A stretch of 64,000 bases of DNA from an uncultured Fibrobacteraceae bacterium (GCA_964399195.1 CAYNPY010000002.1:15129-79128); one strand, 5' to 3'; positions 20,343 through 59,189 are shown, numbered from the stretch's first letter. Notes: a model not told the origin generated them from the sequence alone. Made by a program: numbers and translations.

Positions 20343-21005
20343 CTATTCCGCCCCGCAGTCGCCCTCGAGGATGCACTTGACCTTGAAGCTGAGCGCCATG
20401 ATGCCCACGGCCAGGCGCTCGTTGCGCACGGCCACCGTGCCGGGCACCTTCAGGTCGGTCGGCGCGAAGTTGACGATGCCGACGATGCCCGCCTTCACCA
20501 GCCGGTCGGTCACCGCCTGCGCGTGCTGCGCCGGCACGGTCAGGATCGCGATGCGGATGCCCTCGCCGGCGACGACCGCCTCCAGTTCGTCCATGTCCCG
20601 CACGGGCTGGCCGCGGATCTCCAGGCCCGCCAGCCGCGGGTTGGCGTCGAAGATCCCCCGCACGGGGAAGCCCTGCACCTCGAGGTTGCCGTAGTTGGCC
20701 AGCGCCTGGCCCAGGTGGCCGGCGCCGACGATCGCCACCGCCTGCGGCTCGGCCACGCCGATGATCTTCTCCAGCGCCGGCACCAGCTTGCCCACCTGGT
20801 ACGGGCGGCCGGGCCGGCTGAACCCGCCGAAGTAGTGGAAGTCGTGCCTGAGCTGGCTGGCCTTGATGTCCAGCGACTCGGCCAGCTGCCGGCTGGAGAC
20901 ATCCTCGACGCCCATCGCCTGCAGCAGCTTGAGCTTCTCCAGGTAGCGCGGGAGCCGGTGGATGGTCGCCTCGGGAACCTCGGAATGCCGCCTGATCTTG
21001 CGCAC
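20343..21005 (-). CDS. rex: Redox-sensing transcriptional repressor Rex
   Basis: 220 aa from a GTG start. The winged-helix N-terminus is IHRLPRYLEKLKLLQAMGVEDVSSRQLAESLDIKASQLRHDFHYFG. The Rossmann motif is VAIVGAGHLGQALANY, followed by IAILTVPAQHAQAV and GIVNFAP. Confidence 0.9.
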   Translation of the reverse strand: MRKIRRHSEVPEATIHRLPRYLEKLKLLQAMGVEDVSSRQLAESLDIKASQLRHDFHYFGGFSRPGRPYQVGKLVPALEKIIGVAEPQAVAIVGAGHLGQALANYGNLEVQGFPVRGIFDANPRLAGLEIRGQPVRDMDELEAVVAGEGIRIAILTVPAQHAQAVTDRLVKAGIVGIVNFAPTDLKVPGTVAVRNERLAVGIMALSFKVKCILEGDCGAE

Positions 21006-21097: not shown

Positions 21098-21126
21098 ACC
21101 ATATTCGGAATCTAATCACGTGTCAA
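21098..21126 (-). promoter_or_regulatory. Candidate rex promoter
   Basis: On the minus strand: TTGACA (21126-21121), a 17-nt spacer, then TATGGT (21103-21098). The -35 element is one arm of the palindrome at 21121-21136. Confidence 0.45.
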
Positions 21127-21136
21127 CCGGTTGACA
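21121..21136. promoter_or_regulatory. Perfect 16-bp palindrome, candidate Rex operator
   Basis: TGTCAACCGGTTGACA is its own reverse complement. It lies in the 210-bp rex/gatE divergent spacer. It differs from the Rex box TGTGAAC-NN-GTTCACA (from memory) only by a symmetric G-to-C change in each half-site. Confidence 0.5.
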
Positions 21137-21169: not shown

Positions 21170-21215
21170 CGCCTGCCTGCCGGGCGCCAGAGCAGCCGCA
21201 GGAAGGTGGGCCCCC

Positions 21216-23159
21216 TTGTCCCTGTCCAGCCGCTACCGACTGTCCGACCCCTGGCTCCTGCAGCCGCTGCCCGCCTGGGGCACGCTGGGCGACGACGACT
21301 ACCACGCCCTGGGCTTCCGCTGCGGGCTGGAGATCCACCAGCAGCTGCTGACCGCGCGCAAGCTCTTCTGCCGCTGCCCGGCCGGCCGCTACCACCGCGA
21401 CCGGCACGACGCCGAGATCCTGCGGCACATGCGCCCCACGCTGTCGGAGATGGGCGAGTACGACGGCACCGCGCTGATGGAGTTCAAGACGCGCAAGGAG
21501 ATCGTCTACCTGCTGGACCGCGAGACGGTGTGCACCTACGAGATGGACGACGCCCCGCCGTTCGAGATGGACGACGTCGCCCTGGACGGCAGCCTGCTGA
21601 TGGCGATGCTCCTGGGCTGCAACGTCGTCAGCGAGGTGCACATCACGCGCAAGCAGTACCTGGACGGCAGCATCCCGACCGGCTTCCAGCGCACGGCCAT
21701 CGTCGGCACCGACGGCCGCATCCCCTTCGGCGCGCGCAGCGTGCGCATCCGCCAGATCAGCCTCGAGGAGGACAGCTGCCGCGAGGTCAGCGACAAGGGC
21801 CACCGCCGCATCTACCGCACCGACCGCCTGGGCATGCCGCTGATCGAGACCGTGACCGACCCGGACATGCGCACCCCGCACGAGGCGATGGCCGTCGGCC
21901 AGCTCCTGCGCTGGCTCGCGCGCAGCGGCGGCATGGTGCGCACGGGCGCCGGCGCCGCCAGGCAGGACGTGAACGTCAGTGTCGAGGGCGGCACGCGCAT
22001 CGAGATCAAGGGCGTGCCCAGCCTGCGCGAGGTGGGCCGCCTGACGCACAACGAGGCCCTGCGCCAGCGTTCGCTGCTGGGCATCCGCGGCGAGCTGGCG
22101 CGGCGCGGCGTCACCGCCGAGTCGATCGGCGACCGGATGGTGGACGTCACGCCGCAGGTGAGGGGCACGGCCTGCGGCTACATCGCGCAGGCGGTGGCGC
22201 AGGGCGCCGTGGTGGGCGCCGTGGCGCTGCCGGGGTTCCAGGGCCTGCTCGAGGCGCCGACCCAGCCGCGCACGTCGTTCCTCAAGGAGATCAGCGACCG
22301 CGTGCGCGTGATCGCCTGCCTGGACGACCTGCCCAACCTGGTGGCCTCCTCGCAGAACGCGCCGTCGCTCTCCAGCGGCGAGTGGGAGCGCGTGACCAAG
22401 GCCGTCGGCGCCGAGGCGGACGTGCCGGTGATCGTGGTCTGGGGAGCGCGCGCCGACGTCGAGACGGCCGCGCGCGAAGTGGTCCTGCGCGCCCGCGACG
22501 CCGTGCGCGGCGTGCCCAACGAGACGCGCCAGGCCCTGGACGACGGCACCAACGGCTTCGAGCGCATCCTGCCCGGCGCCGACCGCATGTACCCGGACAC
22601 CGACCTGCCGCCCATCCGCCTGGAGGACGTCCGGATCGACGGCATCGCCGCGCGCCTGCCGCTGCGTCCCTGGGAGCGGCGGGAGCGCCTGCGCGACCTC
22701 GGCGTGGGCGAGGATCTGGCGTCGCGGCTGGCCCGCCACCGGGCCTGGGACCTGTTCGAGCATCTGGCGGCCCTGCTGCCGGACGGCTGCGCGTTCGGAC
22801 CCCACAGGCTGGCCTCGCTGCTGCTGGACCGCGAGTGCCCGCGCCCGGCCAGCCTGCGGGCGGCCGGCCCCTGGTGGGAGGCGCTGGTGCGCGACCTGGC
22901 CGCCGGCGCCGTCATCCCCGAGGGCGCCTGGACCGCCGAGGACGAGGTGCCGCGCCGCGCGGACGACGCCCAGGCGCGCCGGCTGTTCGCCGCCGCCTGG
23001 GCGGACGCGCTGGCCGACGGGGGCGCCGGGCTGCCGGACGAGGCCGCGAGGCGCGAACACGCGCTGATGGGCCGGGTCATGCCGCGGCTGCGCGGCCGCG
23101 TGCCGGGCCGCCGGGTCCGCGAATGGGTCGCCGCGGCGGCGAAGGAGGCGCACCGATGA
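21216..23159 (+). CDS. gatE: Archaeal-type Glu-tRNA(Gln) amidotransferase subunit E
   Basis: 647 aa from a TTG start, with GGAAGGTGGG 5 nt upstream. Matching strings: GLEIHQQLLTARKLFCRCP, MRPTLSEMGEYD, GFQRT, ISLEEDSCR, DRLGMPLIETVTDPD, RQDVNVSVEGGTRIEIKGVP. An inserted ~130-aa domain follows. Then come GVPNETRQALDDG..RMYPDTDLPP and a YqeY-like tail (LMGRVMPRLRGRVPG). Confidence 0.85.
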   Translation: MSLSSRYRLSDPWLLQPLPAWGTLGDDDYHALGFRCGLEIHQQLLTARKLFCRCPAGRYHRDRHDAEILRHMRPTLSEMGEYDGTALMEFKTRKEIVYLLDRETVCTYEMDDAPPFEMDDVALDGSLLMAMLLGCNVVSEVHITRKQYLDGSIPTGFQRTAIVGTDGRIPFGARSVRIRQISLEEDSCREVSDKGHRRIYRTDRLGMPLIETVTDPDMRTPHEAMAVGQLLRWLARSGGMVRTGAGAARQDVNVSVEGGTRIEIKGVPSLREVGRLTHNEALRQRSLLGIRGELARRGVTAESIGDRMVDVTPQVRGTACGYIAQAVAQGAVVGAVALPGFQGLLEAPTQPRTSFLKEISDRVRVIACLDDLPNLVASSQNAPSLSSGEWERVTKAVGAEADVPVIVVWGARADVETAAREVVLRARDAVRGVPNETRQALDDGTNGFERILPGADRMYPDTDLPPIRLEDVRIDGIAARLPLRPWERRERLRDLGVGEDLASRLARHRAWDLFEHLAALLPDGCAFGPHRLASLLLDRECPRPASLRAAGPWWEALVRDLAAGAVIPEGAWTAEDEVPRRADDAQARRLFAAAWADALADGGAGLPDEAARREHALMGRVMPRLRGRVPGRRVREWVAAAAKEAHR

Positions 23160-24553
23160 GCAACGTCAGCGACAACGGCGAGTTCAAGGGCTACCGCCCC
23201 CCCACGCTGGACCTGCTGCGCGCCCAGGGGGCGCCGGTCTGGAGCGAAGCCACGCTGCACACCTCGCGCGGCGACTTCACCGGGTTGATCCTGCCGCGCA
23301 GCGAGACGGCCGACGCCGACCACATCGTGCTGAAGCTGGAGACCGGCTACAACATCGGCGTCCGCCACGACACCGTGCGCCGCATCACCGTGCACGGCCG
23401 CAAGGAGGCGCGCTACCAGATCCCGGAGCGCCAGTTCCCCCACGACCCCGGCAAGCCGCGCGTGAAGCTGCTGGGCACCGGCGGCACCATCGCCAGCCGG
23501 CTGGACTACCGCACCGGCGCGGTGATCCCCGCCTTCAGCCCCGGCGAGCTGTACGGCTCGGTGCCGGAGCTGGCCGACATCTGCAACATGGAGACCGAGA
23601 AGCTCTACGGCGTCTTCTCGGAGAACATGGGACCCGAGCAGTGGATGGGGACGGCGCGCGCCATCGCCGCCGAGGTGGAGAAGGGCGTCGCCGGCATCGT
23701 GGTCGGGCACGGCACCGACACCATGCACCACACCGCGGCGGCGCTCAGCTTCATGCTGCAGGACCTGCCGGTGCCCGTGGTCATGGTCGGCAGCCAGCGC
23801 AGCAGCGACCGGCCCAGCTCCGACGCCGCCATCAACCTGATGAACGCCACGCGCACCGCCGCCACCTCCGACATCGCCGAGGTGATGGTCTGCATGTTCG
23901 GCCCCACCAGCGACGAATACGGCCTGCTGCACCGCGGCACGCGCGTGCGCAAGATGCACAGCAGCTACCGGTCCACGTTCCGCACGCTCAGCGACATCCC
24001 GCTGGCCAAGGTCGACGCCGGCGGCGTCACGCCGCTGCGCGACGACTACCGCCGGCGCACCGTGGCCCGCAAGGTGGACCTGAAGGCCGTCTTCGACGAC
24101 CGCGTCTCGCTGGTCTACTACTACCCGAACATGAAGCGCGACATCATCGACTCGCTGATCGACAACGGCTACAAGGGCATCGTCATCGCGGGCACGGGAC
24201 TGGGCCACGTGAACAAGCCGCTGTACCCGACGCTGGACCGCGCGCGCGCCGCCGGCGTGCACGTCTACATGACCGTGCAGACGCTGTGGGGCTACGTGCA
24301 GATGTACGTCTATGAGACGGGGCGCGAGCTGATGGAACTGGGCGTGATCCCCGCGGCCAACATGCTGCCGGAGGTCGCGTACGTGAAGCTGGGCTGGGCG
24401 CTGGGCCAGTCGGACGATGCGGCCGAAGTCCGGCGCCTGATGCTGACGCCCGTCAACGGCGAGATCACCGACCGCGAGCCGCACGACGGCTACCTGGTGC
24501 TGCAGGGAGGCAGCCCGGAGGTGTCGGACTTCATCTCTTCCCACTGGAAGTAG
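23156..24553 (+). CDS. gatD: Archaeal-type Glu-tRNA(Gln) amidotransferase subunit D (asparaginase-like)
   Basis: Uses ATG 23156 within ORF 21131-24553, giving 465 aa, and overlaps the gatE stop (ATGA). A ~90-aa N-terminal domain is followed by an asparaginase fold. Matching strings: KLLGTGGTIASRLDYRTGAV, VVGHGTDTMHHTAAALSF, VGSQRSSDRPSSDAA, IAGTGLGH, MLPEVAYVKLGWALGQ. Confidence 0.9.
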   Translation: MSNVSDNGEFKGYRPPTLDLLRAQGAPVWSEATLHTSRGDFTGLILPRSETADADHIVLKLETGYNIGVRHDTVRRITVHGRKEARYQIPERQFPHDPGKPRVKLLGTGGTIASRLDYRTGAVIPAFSPGELYGSVPELADICNMETEKLYGVFSENMGPEQWMGTARAIAAEVEKGVAGIVVGHGTDTMHHTAAALSFMLQDLPVPVVMVGSQRSSDRPSSDAAINLMNATRTAATSDIAEVMVCMFGPTSDEYGLLHRGTRVRKMHSSYRSTFRTLSDIPLAKVDAGGVTPLRDDYRRRTVARKVDLKAVFDDRVSLVYYYPNMKRDIIDSLIDNGYKGIVIAGTGLGHVNKPLYPTLDRARAAGVHVYMTVQTLWGYVQMYVYETGRELMELGVIPAANMLPEVAYVKLGWALGQSDDAAEVRRLMLTPVNGEITDREPHDGYLVLQGGSPEVSDFISSHWK

Positions 24554-24571: not shown

Positions 24572-26647
24572 TCAGCGGACCACCGTGAACTTGCGCACCG
24601 AGCGGCGGCCGCCCAGTTCCAGCGTCGCCCAGTACACGCCCGACGCCACGCGCGCCCCGCGGGCGTCGCGCACGTCCCAGCCGACCTCGTTCAGCCCGGC
24701 CTGGCCGGACGGCAGGTCGCGCGCGAAGACCGTCGCGCCGCGGGCGTCGAGGATCGCCAGCCGGCCGGGCCGCGCCGTCTCCAGCCAGTAGCGCAGCACG
24801 ATCCAGCCGCCCCGCGAGGGGTTCGGGAAGGCCGACTGCAGGCCCTCGGCGAGCAGACCCTCGCCCAGCGGCGTCCACAGCAGCCAGCGGTCGGGATCCA
24901 GTTCGGCCCCGCTGACCGCCGACTCGAACTCGAACGTCGCGGCGGCCGCGGCGCCTGCCAGGCGCAGCGAGACGTCCCGGGGGCCCTGCGCGGTCGCCAC
25001 GCGGATGGGGTACACGTTGGCGAAGAGCGGCTGCTGGTGCTGCGACAGCGACACCCGCAGGCGCGTGCCGGGCCCGGCGTCGCCGTCCTCGACCGCAAAG
25101 CGGGCGGCGATCCGGGGCAGTTCCGTGCTTTCCAGGTACGGCCAGAGGAACGGGCCCAGGTCCTCCCCCGCCAGCGTCGAGGCCAGGGCCAGGAACTCCG
25201 TCGTCGTCACGTTGCCGCCGGGGCGCCCGCCGCCGTCCGCCCATTGCCGGACCAGGTCGAAGAAGACGGCGTCGCCCAGGCGACCGCGCAGCATGTGCAC
25301 GATCCAGGCGCCCTTGTCGTAGATCACGCGCCCCGGGAACACCGGCACCGGGTCGTGGACGGGGCCCTGCTGCTCCCACTCGGCCTCGTTGCGCGCTTCG
25401 GCCATGAACGCGTGGTAGGCCGCGACCCCGCCGGTGTGCTCGGCCCAGAGGGCCTCGCTGTAGGTGGCGAACCCCTCGTTCAGCCAGATGTCGGCCCAGG
25501 TGGCCGGCGTCAGGCTGTCGCCGAACCACTGGTGCGCCAGCTCGTGCATCACGAGCCAGGCGCCCGAGCCGTCGCCGTCCAGCGCCACCGAGCCGATCGA
25601 GGTGACCGTCTGGTGCTCCATGGCGCCGGGCCAGATGAACTCGGCGTGGCCGTACTTCTCGCCGGCGAAGGGGTAGGGGCCGAAACGCGTCTCGGCCACG
25701 TCCATCATCTCGCACAGCGGCGCGAATTCGACCGCGGCGTCGGCCGCGTCCTCGGGGAACACCCAGTTGCGCAGCGGCACCGCGGTGCCGCCCGAGGTGA
25801 GGCACTCCGACTGCAGCAGCACGTGGTTGCCGACGACCACCGACACCAGGTAGGACGCGATCGGGTACGCCTCGCGCCAGCGCCAGCGGTTGCGACCGGC
25901 GCCCGCCGCCTCGACGCCCAGGAGCGCGCCGTTGGAGACGGCGACCAGCGTGTCGGGCACGGTGAGCGCCAGCGAGACCAGGAACTTGTCGCCGGGCTTG
26001 TCCTTGCAGGGCCACCACGACTGCGCGTACGCCGGCTGGCTCATGCTGGCGATCAGCGGCACGGTCTCCTGCGGCCTGTTGATGTCGGGCACGCGGTCGC
26101 GGAACATCAGCCCGCGGTTGAGCGCCGGCAACAGCGGGCGGCCGCCGTAGCGGACGGTGAACGAGTCGACCTGGCCGTCGGCCAGCGCCGCCGGCAGCGT
26201 CACCGTCAGCGTGTCGCCGGCGTGCGCGAACGGCAGGCTGCCGGAAGCATGGTCGACGCCCGCCACCGTGAGCGTCGTGCGCAGGTCGCAGGTGATGTCG
26301 CGCAGGCCGGCGCGCCTGGCTGAGAAGACCATCGCCACGGCGCCGTCGACGGTCCGCTCCGCGGGATCCAGCGCCAGGTCCAGGTCGCAGCGCAGCATGT
26401 CGTAGAAGTCGCTGTTGGCCGCGGCGTCGCCGAAGGCGCCGTTGTGGCCCTCGTCCGCGGCGCCCGCGACCGGCTCGATCAGGGACTTGGCGGCCTGGAA
26501 TTCCGCGCGCGTCAACCCCGGGTGCACGGGCGCGCGGCGGTCCGGCGCGGCGTCCGCCGCCGTCGCGGTCGCCAGGACCAGCAACAGGGTCCGTGCCTGC
26601 GTGAGGAGCGATGACGGGCGGCAGCGGGTCGGCAGCAGGTTCATCAT
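24572..26647 (-). CDS. M1-family zinc aminopeptidase with FlgD-Ig/T9SS-like C-terminal domain
   Basis: 691 aa with a signal peptide. The GAMEN-type motif is WPGAMEHQT. The zinc site is HELAHQWFG-x18-WLNEGFATYSE. The C-terminus is PNPSRGGWIVLRYWL...GVYWATLELGGRRSVRKFTVVR. There are two adjacent ATGs (26647 or 26644). Confidence 0.85.
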   Translation of the reverse strand: MMNLLPTRCRPSSLLTQARTLLLVLATATAADAAPDRRAPVHPGLTRAEFQAAKSLIEPVAGAADEGHNGAFGDAAANSDFYDMLRCDLDLALDPAERTVDGAVAMVFSARRAGLRDITCDLRTTLTVAGVDHASGSLPFAHAGDTLTVTLPAALADGQVDSFTVRYGGRPLLPALNRGLMFRDRVPDINRPQETVPLIASMSQPAYAQSWWPCKDKPGDKFLVSLALTVPDTLVAVSNGALLGVEAAGAGRNRWRWREAYPIASYLVSVVVGNHVLLQSECLTSGGTAVPLRNWVFPEDAADAAVEFAPLCEMMDVAETRFGPYPFAGEKYGHAEFIWPGAMEHQTVTSIGSVALDGDGSGAWLVMHELAHQWFGDSLTPATWADIWLNEGFATYSEALWAEHTGGVAAYHAFMAEARNEAEWEQQGPVHDPVPVFPGRVIYDKGAWIVHMLRGRLGDAVFFDLVRQWADGGGRPGGNVTTTEFLALASTLAGEDLGPFLWPYLESTELPRIAARFAVEDGDAGPGTRLRVSLSQHQQPLFANVYPIRVATAQGPRDVSLRLAGAAAAATFEFESAVSGAELDPDRWLLWTPLGEGLLAEGLQSAFPNPSRGGWIVLRYWLETARPGRLAILDARGATVFARDLPSGQAGLNEVGWDVRDARGARVASGVYWATLELGGRRSVRKFTVVR

Positions 26648-39904: not shown

Positions 39905-41002
39905 TCAGGCCCCAGGGTAGTCGCGGTCGAGGACCCGCCGCCAGATCAGGCGGTGGTCCTCCTCGGCGGGGCTGGCCAGCAGCAGCGTGTCCGCGTCCCC
40001 CTCGGCCGCCGGCGTGCGGGCCTGCAGCAGGGACTCCTCACCGAGGGCCAGGAAGTCGGCGCGCGTCCAGGGGTGGTAGCGGTGCCAGAAGCCGCAGTGC
40101 CAGAGAAAGAAGCGTTCGACGCGGCCGAGCCCCTTGGCGTCGTCGCCGAAGTGCTCGCAGGCCAGGTCGACGAAGCGGCGCAGCAGGGCCCAGCGCTCGG
40201 CCGGAGTCGGGCACCACGGCTCGCCCGCGAGCAGTTCGCGGAAGATCCACGGCTTGATCAGGGCGCCGCGGGCGATCAGGAACGACCGCACGCGCGTCTG
40301 CTCCCGGCGCCGCTGCAGATCCCAGGGCGTCAGGATGTCGCCGTTTCCGAGCACGGGGATCGCCACCGCCGCCGCGGCCTCGTCGATCAGCTCCCAGCGC
40401 GCGCTCTGGCGGTAGCGTTGGGCGCGCGTGCGCCCGTGGATGCCCAGGGCGTCGGCGCCGGCCCCTTCGCAGCGCCGCGCCAGGTCCACGACATTGAGCT
40501 TGTCCTCGCTGTAGCCCAGCCGCAGCTTGACCGACAGGGGCAGCGTCACCGCGGCGCGCACGGCGCCGACGATCTCCGCCAGCTTCGCCGGCCGCTGCAG
40601 CAGCGCGGCGCCGGAGCCGCGCTTGACGATCAGGTCGATCGGGCAGCCGAAATTGAGGTCGATGAAGCGGGCGCCGGCGTCGGCGGCCAGCCGCGCGCCC
40701 TCGGCCATCGCCTCGGGGTGCTTCCCGGCCAGCTGGACCCCGAAGGCGTCCTCCTCCGGGTGGTGTCGCAGGAGCGGCTTCTCGCCGCCGGCCACCAGCT
40801 TGTGAGCCAGCACCATTTCGCTGCAAGTCAGCTGCGCGCCGAATGAACGGCAGAGGCGGCGGTAGGGCAGGTTGCCGCCCATGGCCATCGGCGAAAGCGC
40901 CAGAACGTTGCGGAACAGGTCGCTGCCCGTCCCGGCGCCTGGACGCTCGTTCTGGCGCTCTTCCTGCGGGCCGCGGCCCCCGTCGCTGCCGGCCGCGCTC
41001 AC
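39905..41002 (-). CDS. tRNA-dihydrouridine synthase family protein
   Basis: 365 aa from a GTG start (uncertain). Matching strings are LSPMAMGGNLPYRRLC, FIDLNFGCPIDLIVKRGSGAALL, SVKLRLG, LGIHGRTRAQRY and IPVLGNGDI. A ~110-aa C-terminal extension follows. Confidence 0.75.
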   Translation of the reverse strand: MSAAGSDGGRGPQEERQNERPGAGTGSDLFRNVLALSPMAMGGNLPYRRLCRSFGAQLTCSEMVLAHKLVAGGEKPLLRHHPEEDAFGVQLAGKHPEAMAEGARLAADAGARFIDLNFGCPIDLIVKRGSGAALLQRPAKLAEIVGAVRAAVTLPLSVKLRLGYSEDKLNVVDLARRCEGAGADALGIHGRTRAQRYRQSARWELIDEAAAAVAIPVLGNGDILTPWDLQRRREQTRVRSFLIARGALIKPWIFRELLAGEPWCPTPAERWALLRRFVDLACEHFGDDAKGLGRVERFFLWHCGFWHRYHPWTRADFLALGEESLLQARTPAAEGDADTLLLASPAEEDHRLIWRRVLDRDYPGA

Positions 41003-50940: not shown

Positions 50941-52842
50941 TCAGTGCCCGCTGACGACTTCCGCGCGCACCTCGCGGCCGCCCGAAGCGATCGCCACGAT
51001 GTAGACGCCCGACGGCAGGCGGCGGCCGCCGTCGTCGCGGCCGTCCCAGGTCAGTTCGTTCTCGCCCTCGACGCCGGCCTGCGTCCGCTGCCCGCGCACC
51101 AGCCGGCCGCGGACGTCGAAAACGCGCCAGGACACGGGGGCCGCCACGGGCAGCGACACGCGGATGGTGACGGCGTCGCGGAAGGGATTCGGGCCCAGGC
51201 CGGTGACCGTCGGCGTGGGCGCCACGACCATGAGCTCGACCGTCCGCGTGGCGTCGCTGCCGCGGCCGGGATTGGCGATCGTGACCAGCGCCGCGTGCGC
51301 GCCCGCGCGCAGCGCGCCCGCCGCGGCGCTCACGGCCACGGTGACGACGACCTGCCCGCCCGCCGGGACGTTTCCCGACGCGGGCGCGACGGTGAGCCAG
51401 TCACGGTCGACCGTCGCCTCAAAGGGCGCCGCGAGGGCGCCGTCGTTGGCCAGCGTGAACTCCCAGGACGCCGGCGTGAACGGCCCGCCCACCGGGCCGC
51501 GGCCGATCTGCCCTTCGGCAGGCGCGACCGCGAACTCGCCGGCCGTCGGGTCCAGCAGCGGCGCCGTGACGGCGCCGGTGGCGCCGGGGTCCAGCCAGTC
51601 GGACAGGCGCGTGGCGGGGGTGCCCCCGCCCTCCCAGGACAGGTGGAGGCGCCCGTACCAGTCGGAATCGTTGTTGCCGCAGGCGGCATAGCCGCCGTGG
51701 AGCTGGCCGACGACCAGGTGGTCCTGGTCGAAGAGCGGCGAGCCCGACGATCCGGGCTCGGTCGTCCCGAGATCCCAGTCGATGACCCGCAGGTGCGTGC
51801 CGTTGCCGGGCGTCGTCGAGGCCAGGTAGGAGGCCGGCACGACGGCGGCGGTCTCGAAGGAGATGCTCTTCTCGTCGGAGGAGGGGTGGTGGATCGCCGT
51901 CGCCGACGTCGGCGGCGTCTCGCCCCGGTTCCAGCCGGCGTACTTCACGCCGAACGCCGGGTCCGGCGCCTCGTCCAGCTCCAGCAGCGTGAAATCGGTG
52001 GTCGCCCAGGTGGCCCGCAGCACGGCGCCGCTGGTGAACTGCGCCAGCGAGCCGCCGCCCTGCTGTCCGCAGGTCGGACTCTCGAAGTTCCAGTACACGA
52101 CAACCGAAGGCGCCCTGATCGCGCTGATGCCGCAGTGGTCCGCCGTCAGCAGGTACGGGGTGGCGTCGGCGGCGGTGTTGTTGACCAGCGCCCCGGTGCA
52201 GACGAACGAGCCGGCGATCGAGATCAGGCCGACGGTGGCGATCTCGTCGCGCCAGCCGTCTGCGTCCGGGCAGACGACGTCGATGTTGCAGGAGCCGGAC
52301 TTCGCCGCGGGCGCCCGGCCGATGACGCGGTAGCCGCTGTTGACGAACCCCAGCTCCAGCAGGGGTTCGGCGACCGCGGCGGCCGGCACCGCCAGTTCCA
52401 CGACCAGCGCGTCGGCGGCCACGACCGGCGTCCACAGTTCGCCGTGATCGGCGTTGTCGGCCGCCGTGAAGACCAGCGGCGCGGCGCTCCCGTCGGCCGC
52501 GCTCACGGTGAGCGTGGCGCCGACGGGCAGCCAGAACACGGTGAAGCCGAGGTTCAGCGACAGCGCGCCCGGCGAAGCGACTTCCAGCCGCCAGGTTCGA
52601 CCGCCGTCCGCGCGGCGCTCCCAGACGCCGGCGGTGCCCGGCTCCGCCCGCACGGCTTCCGGCACCGCGAACCGCCAGGGCAGGCCGGCGGCCTCGCGCG
52701 CGGCGTCCTCGGCGGCCAGATCCGCGAGCGGGGGCAGGGCGACGGCCAGCCGCGCGGCGGCGGCCCGTGCCGACGGCGCTCCGATCAATGAGCACGCCGC
52801 GACCGCAACCACGAATCCAAGTGCCTTCACCTGCGCGTTCAT
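50941..52842 (-). CDS. Secreted S1-family serine protease (lysyl-endopeptidase-like) with FlgD-Ig/T9SS-like C-terminal domain
   Basis: Uses the internal ATG 52840-52842 of ORF 50941-53286, giving 633 aa, with a signal peptide. A propeptide-like N-domain comes first. The catalytic His is in LLTADHC and the catalytic Ser in EPGSSGSPLF. An Ig-like module follows. The C-terminus is PNPFRDAVTIRVSL...LTWDGRDDGGRRLPSGVYIVAIASGGREVRAEVVSGH. Confidence 0.8.
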   Translation of the reverse strand: MNAQVKALGFVVAVAACSLIGAPSARAAAARLAVALPPLADLAAEDAAREAAGLPWRFAVPEAVRAEPGTAGVWERRADGGRTWRLEVASPGALSLNLGFTVFWLPVGATLTVSAADGSAAPLVFTAADNADHGELWTPVVAADALVVELAVPAAAVAEPLLELGFVNSGYRVIGRAPAAKSGSCNIDVVCPDADGWRDEIATVGLISIAGSFVCTGALVNNTAADATPYLLTADHCGISAIRAPSVVVYWNFESPTCGQQGGGSLAQFTSGAVLRATWATTDFTLLELDEAPDPAFGVKYAGWNRGETPPTSATAIHHPSSDEKSISFETAAVVPASYLASTTPGNGTHLRVIDWDLGTTEPGSSGSPLFDQDHLVVGQLHGGYAACGNNDSDWYGRLHLSWEGGGTPATRLSDWLDPGATGAVTAPLLDPTAGEFAVAPAEGQIGRGPVGGPFTPASWEFTLANDGALAAPFEATVDRDWLTVAPASGNVPAGGQVVVTVAVSAAAGALRAGAHAALVTIANPGRGSDATRTVELMVVAPTPTVTGLGPNPFRDAVTIRVSLPVAAPVSWRVFDVRGRLVRGQRTQAGVEGENELTWDGRDDGGRRLPSGVYIVAIASGGREVRAEVVSGH

Positions 52843-55335: not shown

Positions 55336-56040
55336 TCACGGCGAAGGCGGCGGCCAGGGCCAGTCCGCCGGCAGGGGACATTCGAAACGCATCGGGCGCC
55401 CGCCCACCGGGTGCGCGATGCCGAGCGCCGACGCGTGCAGCGCCACGCGCTGCTCCGGCAACCGCCGCCTGGCGCCGTACTTGACGTCGCCCAGCAGCGG
55501 GTGCCCGCACAGGGCCAACTGCGCGCGGATCTGGTGCCGGCGCCCGGTCTGCGGGCGCACCTCCAGCAGGCTGCCGCCGGGCGCGGACTCGAGCACGCGG
55601 TAACGCAGGCGCGACTCGCGTCCGCCCGGAAACGGCGCCGTCTCGGCCCGCGTCACGCCCCGCGCGTCGCCGGCCGCGGCCAGCCAGTGCACCAGGGCGC
55701 CGTCGCCCGGCTGCGGTCGCCCTTCGCAGACCGCAAGGTAGACCTTCTCCACCCGGTCGTCACGGAAGCACGCCGACAGGCGCGCGGCCGCCTTGCTCGT
55801 GCGCGCCAGCACCACGACGCCGCTGGCGTTGCGGTCCAGGCGGTGCACCAGGCCGACGTAGACGTTGCCCGGCTTGGCGTAGCGCTCCCTCAGCCAGTCG
55901 CGGGCCAGATCGACCAGCGAAGGCTCGCCGCTGGCGTCGCCCTGTGACAGCAGCCCGGCCGGCTTGGCCACCACCAGCAGATGGTTGTCCTCGTGGATGA
56001 CGTCCAGCGGCATCGTCGGCTCCGGTCCGGTGGCGCCCAT
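55336..56040 (-). CDS. RluA-family pseudouridine synthase
   Basis: 234 aa. Matching strings are IHEDNHLLVVAKPAGL, the catalytic Asp context GLVHRLDRNASGVVVLA, YLAVCEG, LEVRPQTGRRHQIRAQL, and PLLGDVKYG. Confidence 0.85.
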   Translation of the reverse strand: MGATGPEPTMPLDVIHEDNHLLVVAKPAGLLSQGDASGEPSLVDLARDWLRERYAKPGNVYVGLVHRLDRNASGVVVLARTSKAAARLSACFRDDRVEKVYLAVCEGRPQPGDGALVHWLAAAGDARGVTRAETAPFPGGRESRLRYRVLESAPGGSLLEVRPQTGRRHQIRAQLALCGHPLLGDVKYGARRRLPEQRVALHASALGIAHPVGGRPMRFECPLPADWPWPPPSP

Positions 56041-56097: not shown

Positions 56098-56991
56098 TCA
56101 GGCCGAGGACCGCTTCGCGGCGCGGTCCGCCGCAGGCGACGGCGACCTGTTCCCGGCCGTCCACAGCGCGGCCAGCAGCAGCCCGGTCCCCGCCAGCGCG
56201 ACGGGGCCGGGCGCCTGTTCGCCGAACACGAGCCAGGACACCGCCATCGCCAGGGGCACCTTCAGGTTGTTGGCCACGGCCAGAAGGGCCGGCGGGGTGC
56301 GCGCGGCGCCCCGGTTCCACAGCAGGAATCCGGCGGCCGTCGGGAGCGCGCCCAGATAGAGCACGACCAGCGCCGCGCGAGGCGTCCAACCGGTCAGCGG
56401 GCCGGCGCCCGTCGCCAGCGAAACCGCCGGCAGGGCCAGCAGCGTCGCGGCCGCAGCCCCGGCGTACATCCAGGCCAGAAGCGATGCGTCGGGGGCTCTG
56501 CTGCGCTCCTTCAGCGCCGCGTACCGCAGCTGGCCGCCGGCGAAGCAGAGGTTCGATCCCTGCAGCAGCAGGACGCCCGGCCACGCCGCCTGCCCGCCTT
56601 CGCCGCGCCCGGTGACCAGAGCGGCGCCGACGACCGCCAGCGCCGCCGCCGCCGTCGCGCGCCAGCGGGCGCGCCCGGCCGGCAGCCTTGCCAGCAGCAT
56701 CACGTAGATGGGCGTGAAGACCGTCAACAGCGCGACCTGCCAAGCCGCCAGCCAACGGAACGACGCCACGTACAGCACGTACATGAGGCCGAACTGCACG
56801 GCGCCCAGGCTCATCGCCTCCAGCCGGAGGCGCCCGGACGCGGCGCCGCGGAACGCGAACGGCAGGAACACCGCCGCCGCCACCAGCAGCCGCGCGGCGG
56901 CCACCGCTGCCGGCGACAGGCCCGCCAGTTCACCCTTGATGAGGCCGAAGGAAAAGGCCCACAGCAGCGATGCGGCCAGCAGCGACGGCAC
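56098..56991 (-). CDS. EamA/DMT-family transporter
   Basis: 297 aa from a GTG start sharing 1 nt with the upstream stop. The product has ten hydrophobic segments in two halves. Matching strings are LLWAFSFGLIKG and LLAVANNLKVPLAMAVSWLVFGE. Confidence 0.8.
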   Translation of the reverse strand: MPSLLAASLLWAFSFGLIKGELAGLSPAAVAAARLLVAAAVFLPFAFRGAASGRLRLEAMSLGAVQFGLMYVLYVASFRWLAAWQVALLTVFTPIYVMLLARLPAGRARWRATAAAALAVVGAALVTGRGEGGQAAWPGVLLLQGSNLCFAGGQLRYAALKERSRAPDASLLAWMYAGAAAATLLALPAVSLATGAGPLTGWTPRAALVVLYLGALPTAAGFLLWNRGAARTPPALLAVANNLKVPLAMAVSWLVFGEQAPGPVALAGTGLLLAALWTAGNRSPSPAADRAAKRSSA

Positions 56992-59072
56992 TACCGCACC
57001 AGCGTCAGCGCCAGCGTGCGCGTGTCGCCGCCGGCGCGCAGCCGAGCGAAGTAGGTGCCCGAGGCGGCGGCGCGCCCGTCACGGTCGCGTCCGTCCCAGG
57101 TCACGCCGTGTTCGCCGGCCGCGAAGCGAGCGCTGGCCAGCAGCGCGACCAGCCGGCCGGCGGCGTCATGCACGGCGAGCGTGACGTCACGCTCGTCGGC
57201 GAGTCGGAAGCGCACCGTCGTGCGCGGGTTGAACGGGTTGGGCGCCGCCGCGAGCGACAGCGCGACCGAGACCTCCGGCACGTCGGACGTGCCCAGGAAG
57301 CGCTTCTCGCACAGCACCCAGTTCTGGGGATCGAGCGCCACGGTCACCGGCGTCCACGGCACCTCCAGGGCATACCACTGCTCGGCGGCGTCGTTCTCCA
57401 CGACGAACACGTAGAGCCCGTTCTCCGTCGTGATGTGAACGTCCAGGGGCATGGCGAACACGCCCGCGCCCGTCTGCGTCTGCTTGATCCGCAGACGGAC
57501 GCGCCAGCCCGATCCGGCCGGCTCCATGCGCCAGGAGTAGTCGTAGCGCGGCACGTACTCGCCGTAGATCCACTGCTGGAAGAAGGCGTCGAGGTCGCGG
57601 CCGCTGGCCGCCTCCATGACGTCGCGGAACTGCTCGGTGGTCGCCGCGCCGAAGCCGTGCGCCTGCCGGTAATCCTTGAGCCCCGCGAAGAAGACGCTGT
57701 CGCCCACCACGTGGCGCAGCATGTGCGGCACCCAGCTGGCCTTCAGGTATGTGAGATACCAGTTGAAGATGGCCGAGAAGTCGGTCGGGTCCTCGACGAT
57801 GATGGTGCCCGGCCCCAGGTAGCGCGCCGCCGCCATCTCGGCGTGGTACGCGGCCGGACCGTAGCGGACCTCCTTCCAGTAGGCCTCCATCCAGGTGGCG
57901 AATCCCTCGTTCAGCCAGATGTGGGAGAAGTCGGCGCAGGTGATCAGATCGCCGAACCACTGGTGGCCCAACTCGTGGGCGATCAGGTACTCGTCGTAAT
58001 TGTTGTAGTACATGCTGCTGCAGGTCTGGTGCTCCATGCCGCCGCCCCAGGGGAACTGGGCGTGGCCGTACTTCTCGGCCACGAACGGGTATTCGCCGAA
58101 CGCGGCCGCGAACGCGTTGATCATGTCGATGGTCACGGCGTAGCCGCTGGTGGCCGGGCCCAGCTGCGAGGGCAGGACGTAGTGCGTGACCGGCATGGCG
58201 CCGCCCGCGGCGGGGTAGTAGACGTCGTTGATGACCGCGTACGGATGGACGGCCAGGGAGACGAGATAGGTCGCGATGGGGTAGCGCTCGCGCCAGTGGT
58301 AGGTCTTCTTCCCCGTCGCGGGCTCGCTGACGCCGGCCAGCACGCCGTTGCTGGCCACGATCAGGTTCGCCGGCACGGTGACGTCCAAGGCCACCGAATC
58401 GGCCTTGTCGGTCGCCGTGTCCTTGCAGGGCCACCAGATGCGCGCGCCGTACGGCTCGCTCAGGGTCCAGATGAGGGGCTGGCCCAGGTAGGTGTCCCAG
58501 CCGAAGGCGGAACTGCTCGGATTGCCGGCGTAGTCGATCGCCACCTCCACCGTCTCACCCGTCGCATAGGCGCGGTCCAGATCGACGCCCAGGATGCCGG
58601 CGTTCCAGGTGAAGGATGTCGACATCCCGGCGCTGCGCGCGCCCGAAGCCGTCATCTGGCTGCCGAAGTCCAGGTCCAGCCGCGTCAGCGGGCCGCCGAC
58701 CACCTCGGCGCGGACGGTGACCGTGCCGGTCACGATGCGCGTCGTCGGGTTCAGGTCCAGGGCCAGTCCATACCAGCGGACGTCGTAGTCGGCCATGGCC
58801 TTGTCCGCTCCCGCCGGCCGCGGGGTCTCCGCGGTCTGCCACCGCATCCCGGCGCGCGCCTTGGTCTCGGCCTCGCGCGCGCGGTGCTGCAGGCTGCGGT
58901 AGGTGCCGGACCAGGGGCCTCCGTCGGGCACCGGCGCCAGCGGGCTCAGCGGCTCGCGCGCGCCGGCGGCGCCGGCCAGCGTCAGGGCCAGCGCGGCCGG
59001 CAGCAGCGGGACGCCGAAGGCGGCGAACCGGGCGCGGCGACGGCCGCGAGGGCGGGGCGAACTGCGGGTCAT
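56991..59072 (-). CDS. M1-family zinc aminopeptidase with FlgD-Ig/T9SS-like C-terminal domain (paralogue of 24572-26647)
   Basis: Uses the internal ATG 59070-59072 of ORF 56991-59165, giving 693 aa, with a basic signal peptide. The GAMEN-type motif is WGGGMEHQT. The zinc site is HELGHQWFG-x18-WLNEGFATWME. The C-terminus is PNPFNPRTTVRFRL...VTWDGRDRDGRAAASGTYFARLRAGGDTRTLALTLVR. Confidence 0.85.
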   Translation of the reverse strand: MTRSSPRPRGRRRARFAAFGVPLLPAALALTLAGAAGAREPLSPLAPVPDGGPWSGTYRSLQHRAREAETKARAGMRWQTAETPRPAGADKAMADYDVRWYGLALDLNPTTRIVTGTVTVRAEVVGGPLTRLDLDFGSQMTASGARSAGMSTSFTWNAGILGVDLDRAYATGETVEVAIDYAGNPSSSAFGWDTYLGQPLIWTLSEPYGARIWWPCKDTATDKADSVALDVTVPANLIVASNGVLAGVSEPATGKKTYHWRERYPIATYLVSLAVHPYAVINDVYYPAAGGAMPVTHYVLPSQLGPATSGYAVTIDMINAFAAAFGEYPFVAEKYGHAQFPWGGGMEHQTCSSMYYNNYDEYLIAHELGHQWFGDLITCADFSHIWLNEGFATWMEAYWKEVRYGPAAYHAEMAAARYLGPGTIIVEDPTDFSAIFNWYLTYLKASWVPHMLRHVVGDSVFFAGLKDYRQAHGFGAATTEQFRDVMEAASGRDLDAFFQQWIYGEYVPRYDYSWRMEPAGSGWRVRLRIKQTQTGAGVFAMPLDVHITTENGLYVFVVENDAAEQWYALEVPWTPVTVALDPQNWVLCEKRFLGTSDVPEVSVALSLAAAPNPFNPRTTVRFRLADERDVTLAVHDAAGRLVALLASARFAAGEHGVTWDGRDRDGRAAASGTYFARLRAGGDTRTLALTLVR

Positions 59073-59189
59073 GGCGGGCACGCTCCGGTCGGGTGTACGC
59101 GGCCGGCGGAGGCCTGCGGCGGCCCCCCGGACCCATGATGATACGACGGATCGCGCGGCGGCCACAAGCCGCCGCCCGCAAGCCGCCGC

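Follow-up and report, generated by a model that had tools for sequence, protein, structure and literature searches.

Is an enzyme that counts as a signature of archaea also at home in bacteria, and what might it do there? This question is raised by two adjacent genes, gatE and gatD, in a stretch of 64,000 nucleotides (the window) from a metagenome-assembled genome (MAG) deposited as an uncultured Fibrobacteraceae bacterium (GCA_964399195.1 CAYNPY010000002.1:15129-79128). They encode the two subunits of GatDE, a tRNA-dependent amidotransferase that reviews from 2008 and 2022 describe as an archaeal signature enzyme (PMC2330236, PMC9499178). The same reviews explain the archaeal lack of GlnRS by the co-evolution of GatDE with the archaeal-type tRNA(Gln) (PMC2330236, PMC9499178). 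A reading of the sequence alone had proposed an archaeal-type operon in a bacterial genome. We find that the operon is not peculiar to one genome: it is kept across the candidate phylum Krumholzibacteriota and occurs in many further phyla.

An archaeal-type amidotransferase encoded by a bacterial operon

Both genes belong to the GatDE family and form a translationally coupled operon, with intact catalytic residues and the insertion domain specific to GatE. The features of the operon are the following (window coordinates and strand, with the basis of each call in brackets).

21200..21206, plus: Shine-Dalgarno-like AGGAAGG, 9 nt 5' of the gatE TTG start (direct sequence reading)
21216..23159, plus: gatE, kinase/transamidase subunit of a GatDE-type tRNA-dependent amidotransferase, 647 aa (family scores, structures)
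21297..22103, plus: GatE cradle (catalytic) domain, part 1, residues 28-296 (H41, E184, E211; motifs LEEDS, DRLGMPLIE, RQDVNVS, EIKGV)
22104..22508, plus: GatE-specific insertion domain, AspRS/GAD-like, about residues 297-431, boundaries approximate (Pfam span, Foldseek, GAD in relatives)
22509..22631, plus: GatE cradle domain, part 2, residues 432-472, with GVPNETRQALDDG and RMYPDTDLPP (motif positions)
22632..23156, plus: GatE C-terminal helical and tail region, residues 473-647, diverged in Krumholzibacteriota, its last 55-60 residues YqeY/GatB-tail-like
23156..23159, plus: ATGA overlap of gatE stop and gatD start, translational coupling (sequence GCACCGATGAGCAACG at 23150-23165)
23156..24553, plus: gatD, glutaminase/asparaginase subunit of GatDE, 465 aa, ATG start (family scores, PDB matches)
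23156..23455, plus: GatD N-terminal domain, residues 1-100 (Pfam GatD_N 45.8 bits, residues 40-78)
23456..24442, plus: GatD type I asparaginase fold, residues 101-429 (Pfam Asparaginase and Asparaginase_C)
24473..24550, plus: GatD C-terminal extension, residues 440-465, ending in DGYLVLQGGSPEVSDFISSHWK (sequence comparison)

The TTG at 21216 is the sole ATG, GTG or TTG among the first 60 codons of the gatE open reading frame. Its product passes the curated cut-offs of two NCBIfam GatE models, NF003107 (463.8 bits, cut-off 456) and TIGR00134 ('gatE_arch', 405.4 bits, cut-off 319.55); the NF003107 margin is thin because the C-terminal 130 residues have no alignment. Six GatB models score 60–138 bits on the same protein against cut-offs of 315–680, and the match of the top one (137.6 bits, cut-off 338) is confined to residues ~120-290. 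Among solved structures, the GatE chains 1zq1_C and 2d6f_C come nearest in sequence (E ~1e-91, residues 28-520), and GatB chains trail them with E 1e-27 or weaker. When an AlphaFold2 model of GatE (49 homologues, mean predicted local distance difference test score, pLDDT, 80.4) was compared by Foldseek, GatE chains (1zq1_C, 2d6f) were matched at E ~1e-39 and GatB chains at ~1e-17. These were followed by weak matches to AspRS chains (E 2e-3 to 2e-2), as expected because the insertion is AspRS-like.

The insertion itself is visible in the Pfam GatB_N match, which is stretched over residues 36-472 (437 residues) for 272 positions of the 277-position profile and thus implies some 165 additional aa. 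This agrees with the inserted domain proposed from the sequence, which we place at about residues 297-431, and Pfam GAD is found at the corresponding position in related bacterial GatEs and in an Asgard GatE. With all GatB models below cut-off and the insertion domain present, an identification of the gatE product as GatB is ruled out. Bacterial GatCAB catalyses the same overall reaction, and its subunit GatB is a paralogue of GatE with which it shares the cradle fold and the concept of the tail. However, GatB has no insertion domain, and the glutaminase of GatCAB is the amidase GatA with GatC instead of an asparaginase-type GatD.

Along the same lines, the gatD product reaches 517.4 bits with NCBIfam TIGR02153 (cut-off 324) and 509.3 bits with NF003217 (cut-off 310), and its closest solved structures by sequence are 1zq1_A (E 5e-125) and 2d6f_A (E 2e-119). 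Stand-alone type I L-asparaginases, for example those of Thermococcus kodakarensis (5OT0) and Pyrococcus furiosus (4Q0M), share the catalytic fold and residues of the C-terminal two-thirds of GatD, but they lack the GatD N-domain and a coupled gatE, and asparaginase structures match the gatD product with E 1e-37 or weaker. The Pfam domains GatD_N, Asparaginase and Asparaginase_C bear out the division into an N-domain and a type I asparaginase fold. An N-terminal 'GY' segment is common to most of the compared GatDs, Pyrococcus excepted.

Are the active sites intact? Archaeal GatD employs a Thr nucleophile and a Thr-Lys-Asp triad (PMC2330236). In the window GatD the catalytic residues are T111 (in GTGGTIAS), T187 and D188 (in HGTDTM) and K266 (in VRKMH), all four of which are invariant in 69 of 69 bacterial GatDs. 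In Methanothermobacter thermautotrophicus GatE, the Mg2+ ligands are His15, Glu157 and Glu184, each of them indispensable to the kinase and transamidase activities (PMC2330236); the window residues H41, E184 and E211 align to them. In an alignment of 81 GatEs (77 bacterial sequences, a Sigynarchaeota GatE, the GatE partner of the GatD representative P0241 discussed below, and two PDB sequences) these three and 14 further motif residues are invariant throughout, as are R457, Y459 and D463, while Q250 (Q/E/A) and D461 (D/E) vary. All motifs quoted in the sequence-only reading are present and the ATGA overlap is found at 23156..23159; merely the spacing between GLEIHQQL and KLFCRCP needs correction, from five residues to four.

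Compared with the archaeal enzymes of M. thermautotrophicus (2D6F) and Pyrococcus abyssi (1ZQ1), the window pair therefore has both subunits in the same domain plan: N-domain plus type I asparaginase fold in GatD, and cradle, AspRS/GAD-like insertion and C-terminal helical/tail region in GatE. Window and archaeal proteins are identical in their Mg2+ ligands and Thr/Thr-Asp-Lys residues and have every long motif in common. What sets the window enzyme apart is its bacterial host, a GatE core that is ~39% identical, a barely recognisable tail, and a tRNA(Gln) that is presumably of the bacterial type.

This tail deserves a closer look. The NCBIfam and PDB matches of GatE stop near residue 520, and Pfam GatB_Yqey scores 11.9 bits on the window protein (E 0.21, cut-off 27), compared with 26 bits for an Aminicenantes GatE, 36 bits for an Ignavibacteriales GatE, 41 bits for a Phycisphaerales GatE and 68 bits for the Sigynarchaeota (Asgard) GatE. 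A profile built from krumholzibacterial tails matches the last 55–60 residues only of other GatEs, collinearly and with E 3e-8 to 6e-4, and in the structure model the region is all-helical with a pLDDT of ~85–96. The tail is thus probably YqeY-like by descent, as had been proposed, although it is only weakly detectable as such, and the helical/tail module appears to have diverged strongly within Krumholzibacteriota.

Taken together, we consider it likely that the two genes encode a functional GatDE, an alpha2-beta2 tRNA-dependent amidotransferase, whose reaction would most likely be the amidation of Glu-tRNA(Gln). If it works like the archaeal enzyme, a non-discriminating GluRS would supply Glu-tRNA(Gln), to be bound by GatE (PMC2330236). 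GatD would hydrolyse Gln or Asn by means of its asparaginase-type Thr nucleophile and Thr-Lys-Asp triad (PMC2330236), and the ammonia released would move through an intramolecular tunnel to GatE (PMC2330236). There the gamma-carboxyl would be phosphorylated with Mg-ATP and then amidated to give Gln-tRNA(Gln) (PMC2330236). We infer both the substrate, the host's own Glu-tRNA(Gln), and the tRNA determinants by which it would be recognised.

Distribution of GatDE among bacteria

How far does this operon reach? A scan with the window GatE against one genome per GTDB species yielded at least 588 confirmed relatives (600 stretches listed), the best 80 of which all lie in bacterial MAGs. A restriction of GatDE to archaea, as implied by the signature status that the sequence-only reading had noted, does not hold up against these numbers; since this concerns distribution and no molecular feature, the assignment to the family is untouched by it. 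That reading had itself named a survey finding GatDE to be common in this bacterial lineage as an outcome that would lower the novelty and leave the call unchanged, and this is what we observe.

The closest relatives, at 64–83% identity to the window GatE, come from Krumholzibacteriia. More than 120 GatE protein clusters fall into this range, several of them listed at NCBI under the name GatE, from Candidatus Krumholzibacteriota or Krumholzibacteria, and the window GatE is 100% identical to one database entry. The host lineage is the candidate phylum Krumholzibacteriota. At 46–60% identity follow Ignavibacteria and Melioribacteraceae (with complete chromosomes among them), Aminicenantes, KSB1, Cloacimonetes, Calditrichota, Phycisphaerae and Planctomycetota (one complete chromosome), Myxococcota and unclassified Bacteroidota; Marinimicrobia are added by NCBI names on GatD homologues. 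OY970271.1, OY760517.1, CP070718.1 and OY820579.1 are among the complete chromosomes that carry GatDE.

For ten of the loci (L005, L008, L009, L012, L015, L021, L025, L065, L068 and L070) the label of the MAG record (ENA 'binchicken' and similar) reads, for example, Fibrobacteraceae, Hyphomicrobiales, Rickettsiales, Eubacteriales or Cytophagia, in conflict with the NCBI labels of the closest GatE relatives, which are Krumholzibacteriia and Ignavibacteria. Such record titles are not reliable for phylum counts.

The organisation of the operon is conserved as well. Both genes are found on 74 of the 80 scan loci, so that the GatD partner is present at the gene level, and 69 of the GatDs are near full length. 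gatE precedes gatD in all 74 loci with both genes, and in 71 of these the two are no more than ~300 nt apart, in most cases overlapping by 4 nt or 1 nt. Across phyla the GatDs are 68–86% identical to that of the window.

Departures from this arrangement were noted in a few places. Two MTHFR-related genes lie between gatE and gatD in one locus (L018:4647-6109), and DUF190, C92-family amidase and CorA genes in another (L029:12225-15273). The operon can therefore be split, given that unrelated genes separate its members in two lineages. The gatD gene is in two pieces in a KSB1 MAG (L038:4130-5107, residues 75-210 missing) and on the Phycisphaerales chromosome CP070718.1 (L081:11983-13375, different frames). 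Frameshifts, deletions, pseudogenisation or errors of assembly account for these cases.

The surroundings of the operon differ from lineage to lineage, and in 60 loci no pathway gene, aminoacyl-tRNA synthetase gene or gatCAB recurs, which points to a stand-alone housekeeping operon. The commonest Pfam families among the 117 immediate neighbour proteins are PhoH/PIN (seven) and FabH (five), and Pfam counts over these 117 reveal no recurring translation gene. A tblastn search with GatE for a GatB paralogue near the operon gave one match per locus and no GatB in ~1.4 Mb of loci, and ARAGORN found no tRNA(Gln) in 87 related loci or the window.

The family as such is known: the NCBI pipeline already labels the bacterial proteins GatD and GatE, and the bacterial branch forms an entire clade within it. 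Full-text literature searches returned no paper describing bacterial GatDE.

Origin of the bacterial branch

If GatDE is widespread in bacteria, where did it come from? A GatD search of 1.84 billion cluster representatives gave 504 clusters at E <= 1e-30. Clustered at 50% identity, the bacterial GatDs come down to about one full-length representative, P0241, plus fragments, and the named representatives outside the bacterial clade are all archaeal (Sigynarchaeota, Desulfurococcaceae, Thermoproteus, Marsarchaeota, Bathyarchaeia, Thermoplasmatota and Thermococcales). A profile from the two PDB GatDs gathered almost solely Thermococcales and Methanobacteriales, and a profile of the nearest relatives of the bacterial clade returned mainly bacterial sequences.

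P0241 is the deepest intact member of this clade. Its contig (L084) is bacterial, with tmRNA, lipopolysaccharide heptosyltransferase-family and DtxR/ZnuABC genes and with gatE upstream of gatD. The tmRNA gene (tag ANTQFAMAA; L084:7554-7903) stands directly 5' of gatE, which confirms that the P0241 lineage has a bacterial host.

Neighbour-joining trees of 145 GatD sequences, rooted on two archaeal asparaginases from PDB alignments, unite the bacterial GatDs with P0241, P0243 and P0278 in one clade (97–100 of 100 bootstraps). This clade joins a group holding the Sigynarchaeota GatD, the nearest named group, in 71–82 of 100 bootstraps. The link to the Asgard side agrees with two independent characters. 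The first is gene order: gatE is followed by gatD in the bacteria and on the Sigynarchaeota contig (L085:235-3586), whereas gatD comes first in Pyrococcus abyssi and on a Methanobacteriales-like contig (L090:4001-7215 and L091:4001-7163). The second is the C-terminal extension of GatD, ~20 extra residues in the window protein, which is found in bacterial GatDs, is recognisable in the Sigynarchaeota-like group (P0245, P0246, P0247) and is absent from Pyrococcus and Methanothermobacter-like GatDs. The Sigynarchaeota pair (GatD MDO8108662.1 and the adjacent GatE, L085) thus shares order, adjacency and extension with the bacterial operon, but has an archaeal host and a clear GatB_Yqey tail, and is ~46–52% identical to the bacterial proteins in GatD. 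In the GatE tree the bacteria are set apart from three archaeal sequences in 200 of 200 bootstraps; it names no donor because these three are the only archaeal sequences in the tree.

That bacterial GatDE derives from archaeal GatDE and later spread among bacteria is a well-supported reading of trees, gene order and extension, in line with the old transfer from archaea to bacteria put forward in the sequence-only reading; part of this spread would have gone from phylum to phylum. For an Asgard/TACK-like lineage as the donor these data are suggestive.

The search also turned up unusual relatives. P0243 and P0278, which branch beside the bacterial clade, are GatD-like with degenerate motifs: GTGGTIAS is replaced by GAGGALAS or FGGASPLS and HGTDTM by TGVATM or HARATV, and in P0278 the catalytic Lys is gone as well. 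Both look like GatD paralogues without catalytic activity. P0242 (943 aa, on a 12.8 kb Logan contig) joins a GatE-like N-terminal part of ~496 residues, apparently tail-less, to a full GatD with 63% identity to that of the window. Either GatE and GatD are naturally fused here, or a frameshift or an artefact of gene calling has joined them.

Role in the bacterial cell and competing explanations

What would such an enzyme do in its bacterial hosts? We tentatively propose that bacteria acquired GatDE a single time, from an Asgard/TACK-like archaeon, and that this gave a large branch not described before. The branch would have spread through Krumholzibacteriota, Ignavibacteria, Marinimicrobia, Cloacimonadota, Calditrichota and KSB1 (phyla of the Fibrobacteres-Chlorobi-Bacteroidetes, FCB, group) as well as Phycisphaerae, Aminicenantes and Myxococcota. 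Many of these organisms would have no other route to Gln-tRNA(Gln), GatDE having taken over the Glu-amidotransferase role from GatCAB and having been retuned from the A1-U72 of archaeal to the U1-A72 of bacterial tRNA(Gln).

Several points speak against the main reading, a functional GatDE of archaeal descent that amidates the host's Glu-tRNA(Gln). The trees are neighbour-joining only, and the position of the asparaginase root among the archaea is unstable. The Asgard-like GatDs are barely closer to the bacterial ones than those of Pyrococcus and Methanothermobacter (52% vs 51% identity), and the bacterial GatE core is ~39% identical to each of the three archaeal GatEs, the Asgard one being no closer. 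Archaeal GatDE reads A1-U72 and the D-loop of tRNA(Gln) (PMC2330236), whereas the bacterial tRNA(Gln) studied carry U1-A72, a determinant read by GatCAB, and a small D-loop (PMC2330236, PMC4027206), so that a bacterial GatE would need a changed tRNA recognition. The strong divergence of the D-loop-binding tail in Krumholzibacteriota may reflect such retuning or a different RNA partner. Finally, the cultured Ignavibacterium album is reported to have both GlnRS and GatCAB (PMC3927822), which, the GatDE status of this species aside, makes redundancy possible in its class.

It is also possible that GatDE is active but redundant or specialised, with GlnRS and/or GatCAB present in the same cell and GatDE serving as a back-up, under specific conditions (for example redox, via Rex) or for one tRNA(Gln) isoacceptor. 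Physiological role is the only point in which such a GatDE would depart from the main reading. The combination of GlnRS and GatCAB in I. album, whose class also includes GatDE-bearing MAGs, fits such a role, as does a perfect 16-bp palindrome, TGTCAACCGGTTGACA, at 21121-21136 in the 210-bp gap between rex (20343-21005, minus) and the divergent gatE. It is the sole match to a Rex-operator-like pattern in the window, with 0.05 expected by chance, and overlaps the -35-like TTGACA of a promoter-like site for rex. As a putative Rex site it may serve the autoregulation of rex and could place gatED under redox control. However, the neighbourhood of rex and gatE is not conserved, with rex accounting for two of the 117 immediate neighbour proteins, and the conservation of the operon, with its active sites unchanged, throughout one entire phylum and in many more is rather what a needed gene would typically show.

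Could bacteria instead have inherited GatDE vertically, from LUCA, the last ancestor common to all life, or a bacterial ancestor, keeping it in a few phyla and losing it elsewhere? Sheppard and Soll, in so far as they are cited in PMC9499178, proposed that LUCA had both amidotransferases; the bacterial GatDs are monophyletic, a root on their stem is compatible with an unrooted tree, and the outgroup root is unstable. We nevertheless regard ancient inheritance as improbable. Bacterial GatDs from at least eight phylum-level labels are at least 66.6% identical to each other (pairwise, 69 sequences), compared with a median of 41.6% among archaeal representatives, a depth far too shallow for the base of Bacteria. 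The asparaginase outgroup fell on the bacterial stem in none of 200 bootstraps, gene order and C-terminal extension are shared specifically with the Asgard-like subgroup, and Myxococcota, Ignavibacteria and other phylum labels are scattered within the bacterial clade.

A recruitment of GatDE for another amidation, be it of Asp-tRNA(Asn), of a different misacylated tRNA or of a carboxylate not borne by tRNA, is quite unlikely. The diverged tail in Krumholzibacteriota and the expected bacterial 1:72 pair, which is unlike the archaeal one, would be compatible with it. But the residues of the catalytic pocket and the motifs common with archaeal GatE are all kept, and so is the insertion domain, for which a modelled clash with non-discriminating AspRS suggests a Glu-specific GatDE (PMC2330236). 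Moreover, other bacterial GatEs of the clade retain a Pfam-detectable GatB_Yqey tail, and no biosynthetic or other pathway gene recurs beside the operon. Active sites, insertion domain and the lack of a conserved neighbouring pathway gene thus favour Gln-tRNA synthesis.

An archaeal fragment mis-binned or chimerically assembled into a bacterial contig has next to no probability: the tetranucleotide correlation of the operon segment (r 0.971, low-normal) is at the 5th percentile of window segments yet within their range of 0.966–0.989, the codon usage is among the most host-like of the window (r = 0.993 for gatE and 0.988 for gatD against other window genes), G+C is 0.70–0.74 over the operon in a window range of 0.66–0.78 with no break at 21–25 kb, an independent Logan assembly repeats the junctions on both sides (DUF5916, rex, gatE, gatD, M1 peptidase, in this order), and in dozens of independent MAGs and complete chromosomes the operon lies amid bacterial genes, for example beside a tmRNA gene (L084), chemotaxis genes and TsaD (L082) or FabH (several Krumholzibacteriia). 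The impression of an unbroken composition gained from the sequence by eye is thereby confirmed, and chimera or contamination was rejected on these compositional measures and the independent assembly.

The window around the operon is likewise bacterial. Rex, a SPOR-domain protein, FabH, an ECF sigma factor and an OEP/TolC-like protein, all named in the sequence-only reading, were verified, and the window further encodes AcrB-type RND pumps accompanied by HlyD adaptors, as well as proteases whose C-termini, FlgD_ig or Por_Secre_tail, are typical of FCB-group bacteria. Two paralogous M1-family peptidases with an FlgD_ig-like C-terminal domain and a trypsin-like protease (BACON, Por_Secre_tail) are encoded at 24572-26647, 56991-59081 and 50941-52842, all on the minus strand. 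They look like type IX secretion cargo, fitting an FCB-group diderm host. Genes for a tRNA-dihydrouridine synthase (Dus) and an RluA-type pseudouridine synthase lie at 39905-40888 and 55336-56040 (minus); nothing ties either to gatED, though the GatE tail binds the D-loop. Scans of the 64-kb window for tRNAs and RNA families gave no match, and the source contig, followed past both window ends via identical proteins, showed no aminoacyl-tRNA synthetase or amidotransferase gene.

What, then, does a bacterial GatDE mean? The claim is modest, and it is literature and biochemistry that leave a gap, but an intact, conserved and widespread bacterial clade contradicts the part of the reviews' picture that confines the enzyme to archaea. 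If the tentative proposal of a single acquisition, wide spread and retuning is true, GatDE is not an archaeal signature, and its co-evolution with a uniquely archaeal tRNA(Gln) needs revisiting. When genomes of these uncultured phyla are annotated and their metabolism is reconstructed, Gln-tRNA synthesis should not be scored as missing when gatCAB and glnS are absent. Bacterial GatDE would also present a natural experiment, in which the enzyme operates in cells with a presumably bacterial tRNA(Gln) identity and possibly beside GatCAB or GlnRS. This opens questions on how an amidotransferase reads tRNA identity, why two amidotransferases are kept in some cells, and how easily core parts of translation pass from one domain of life to another.

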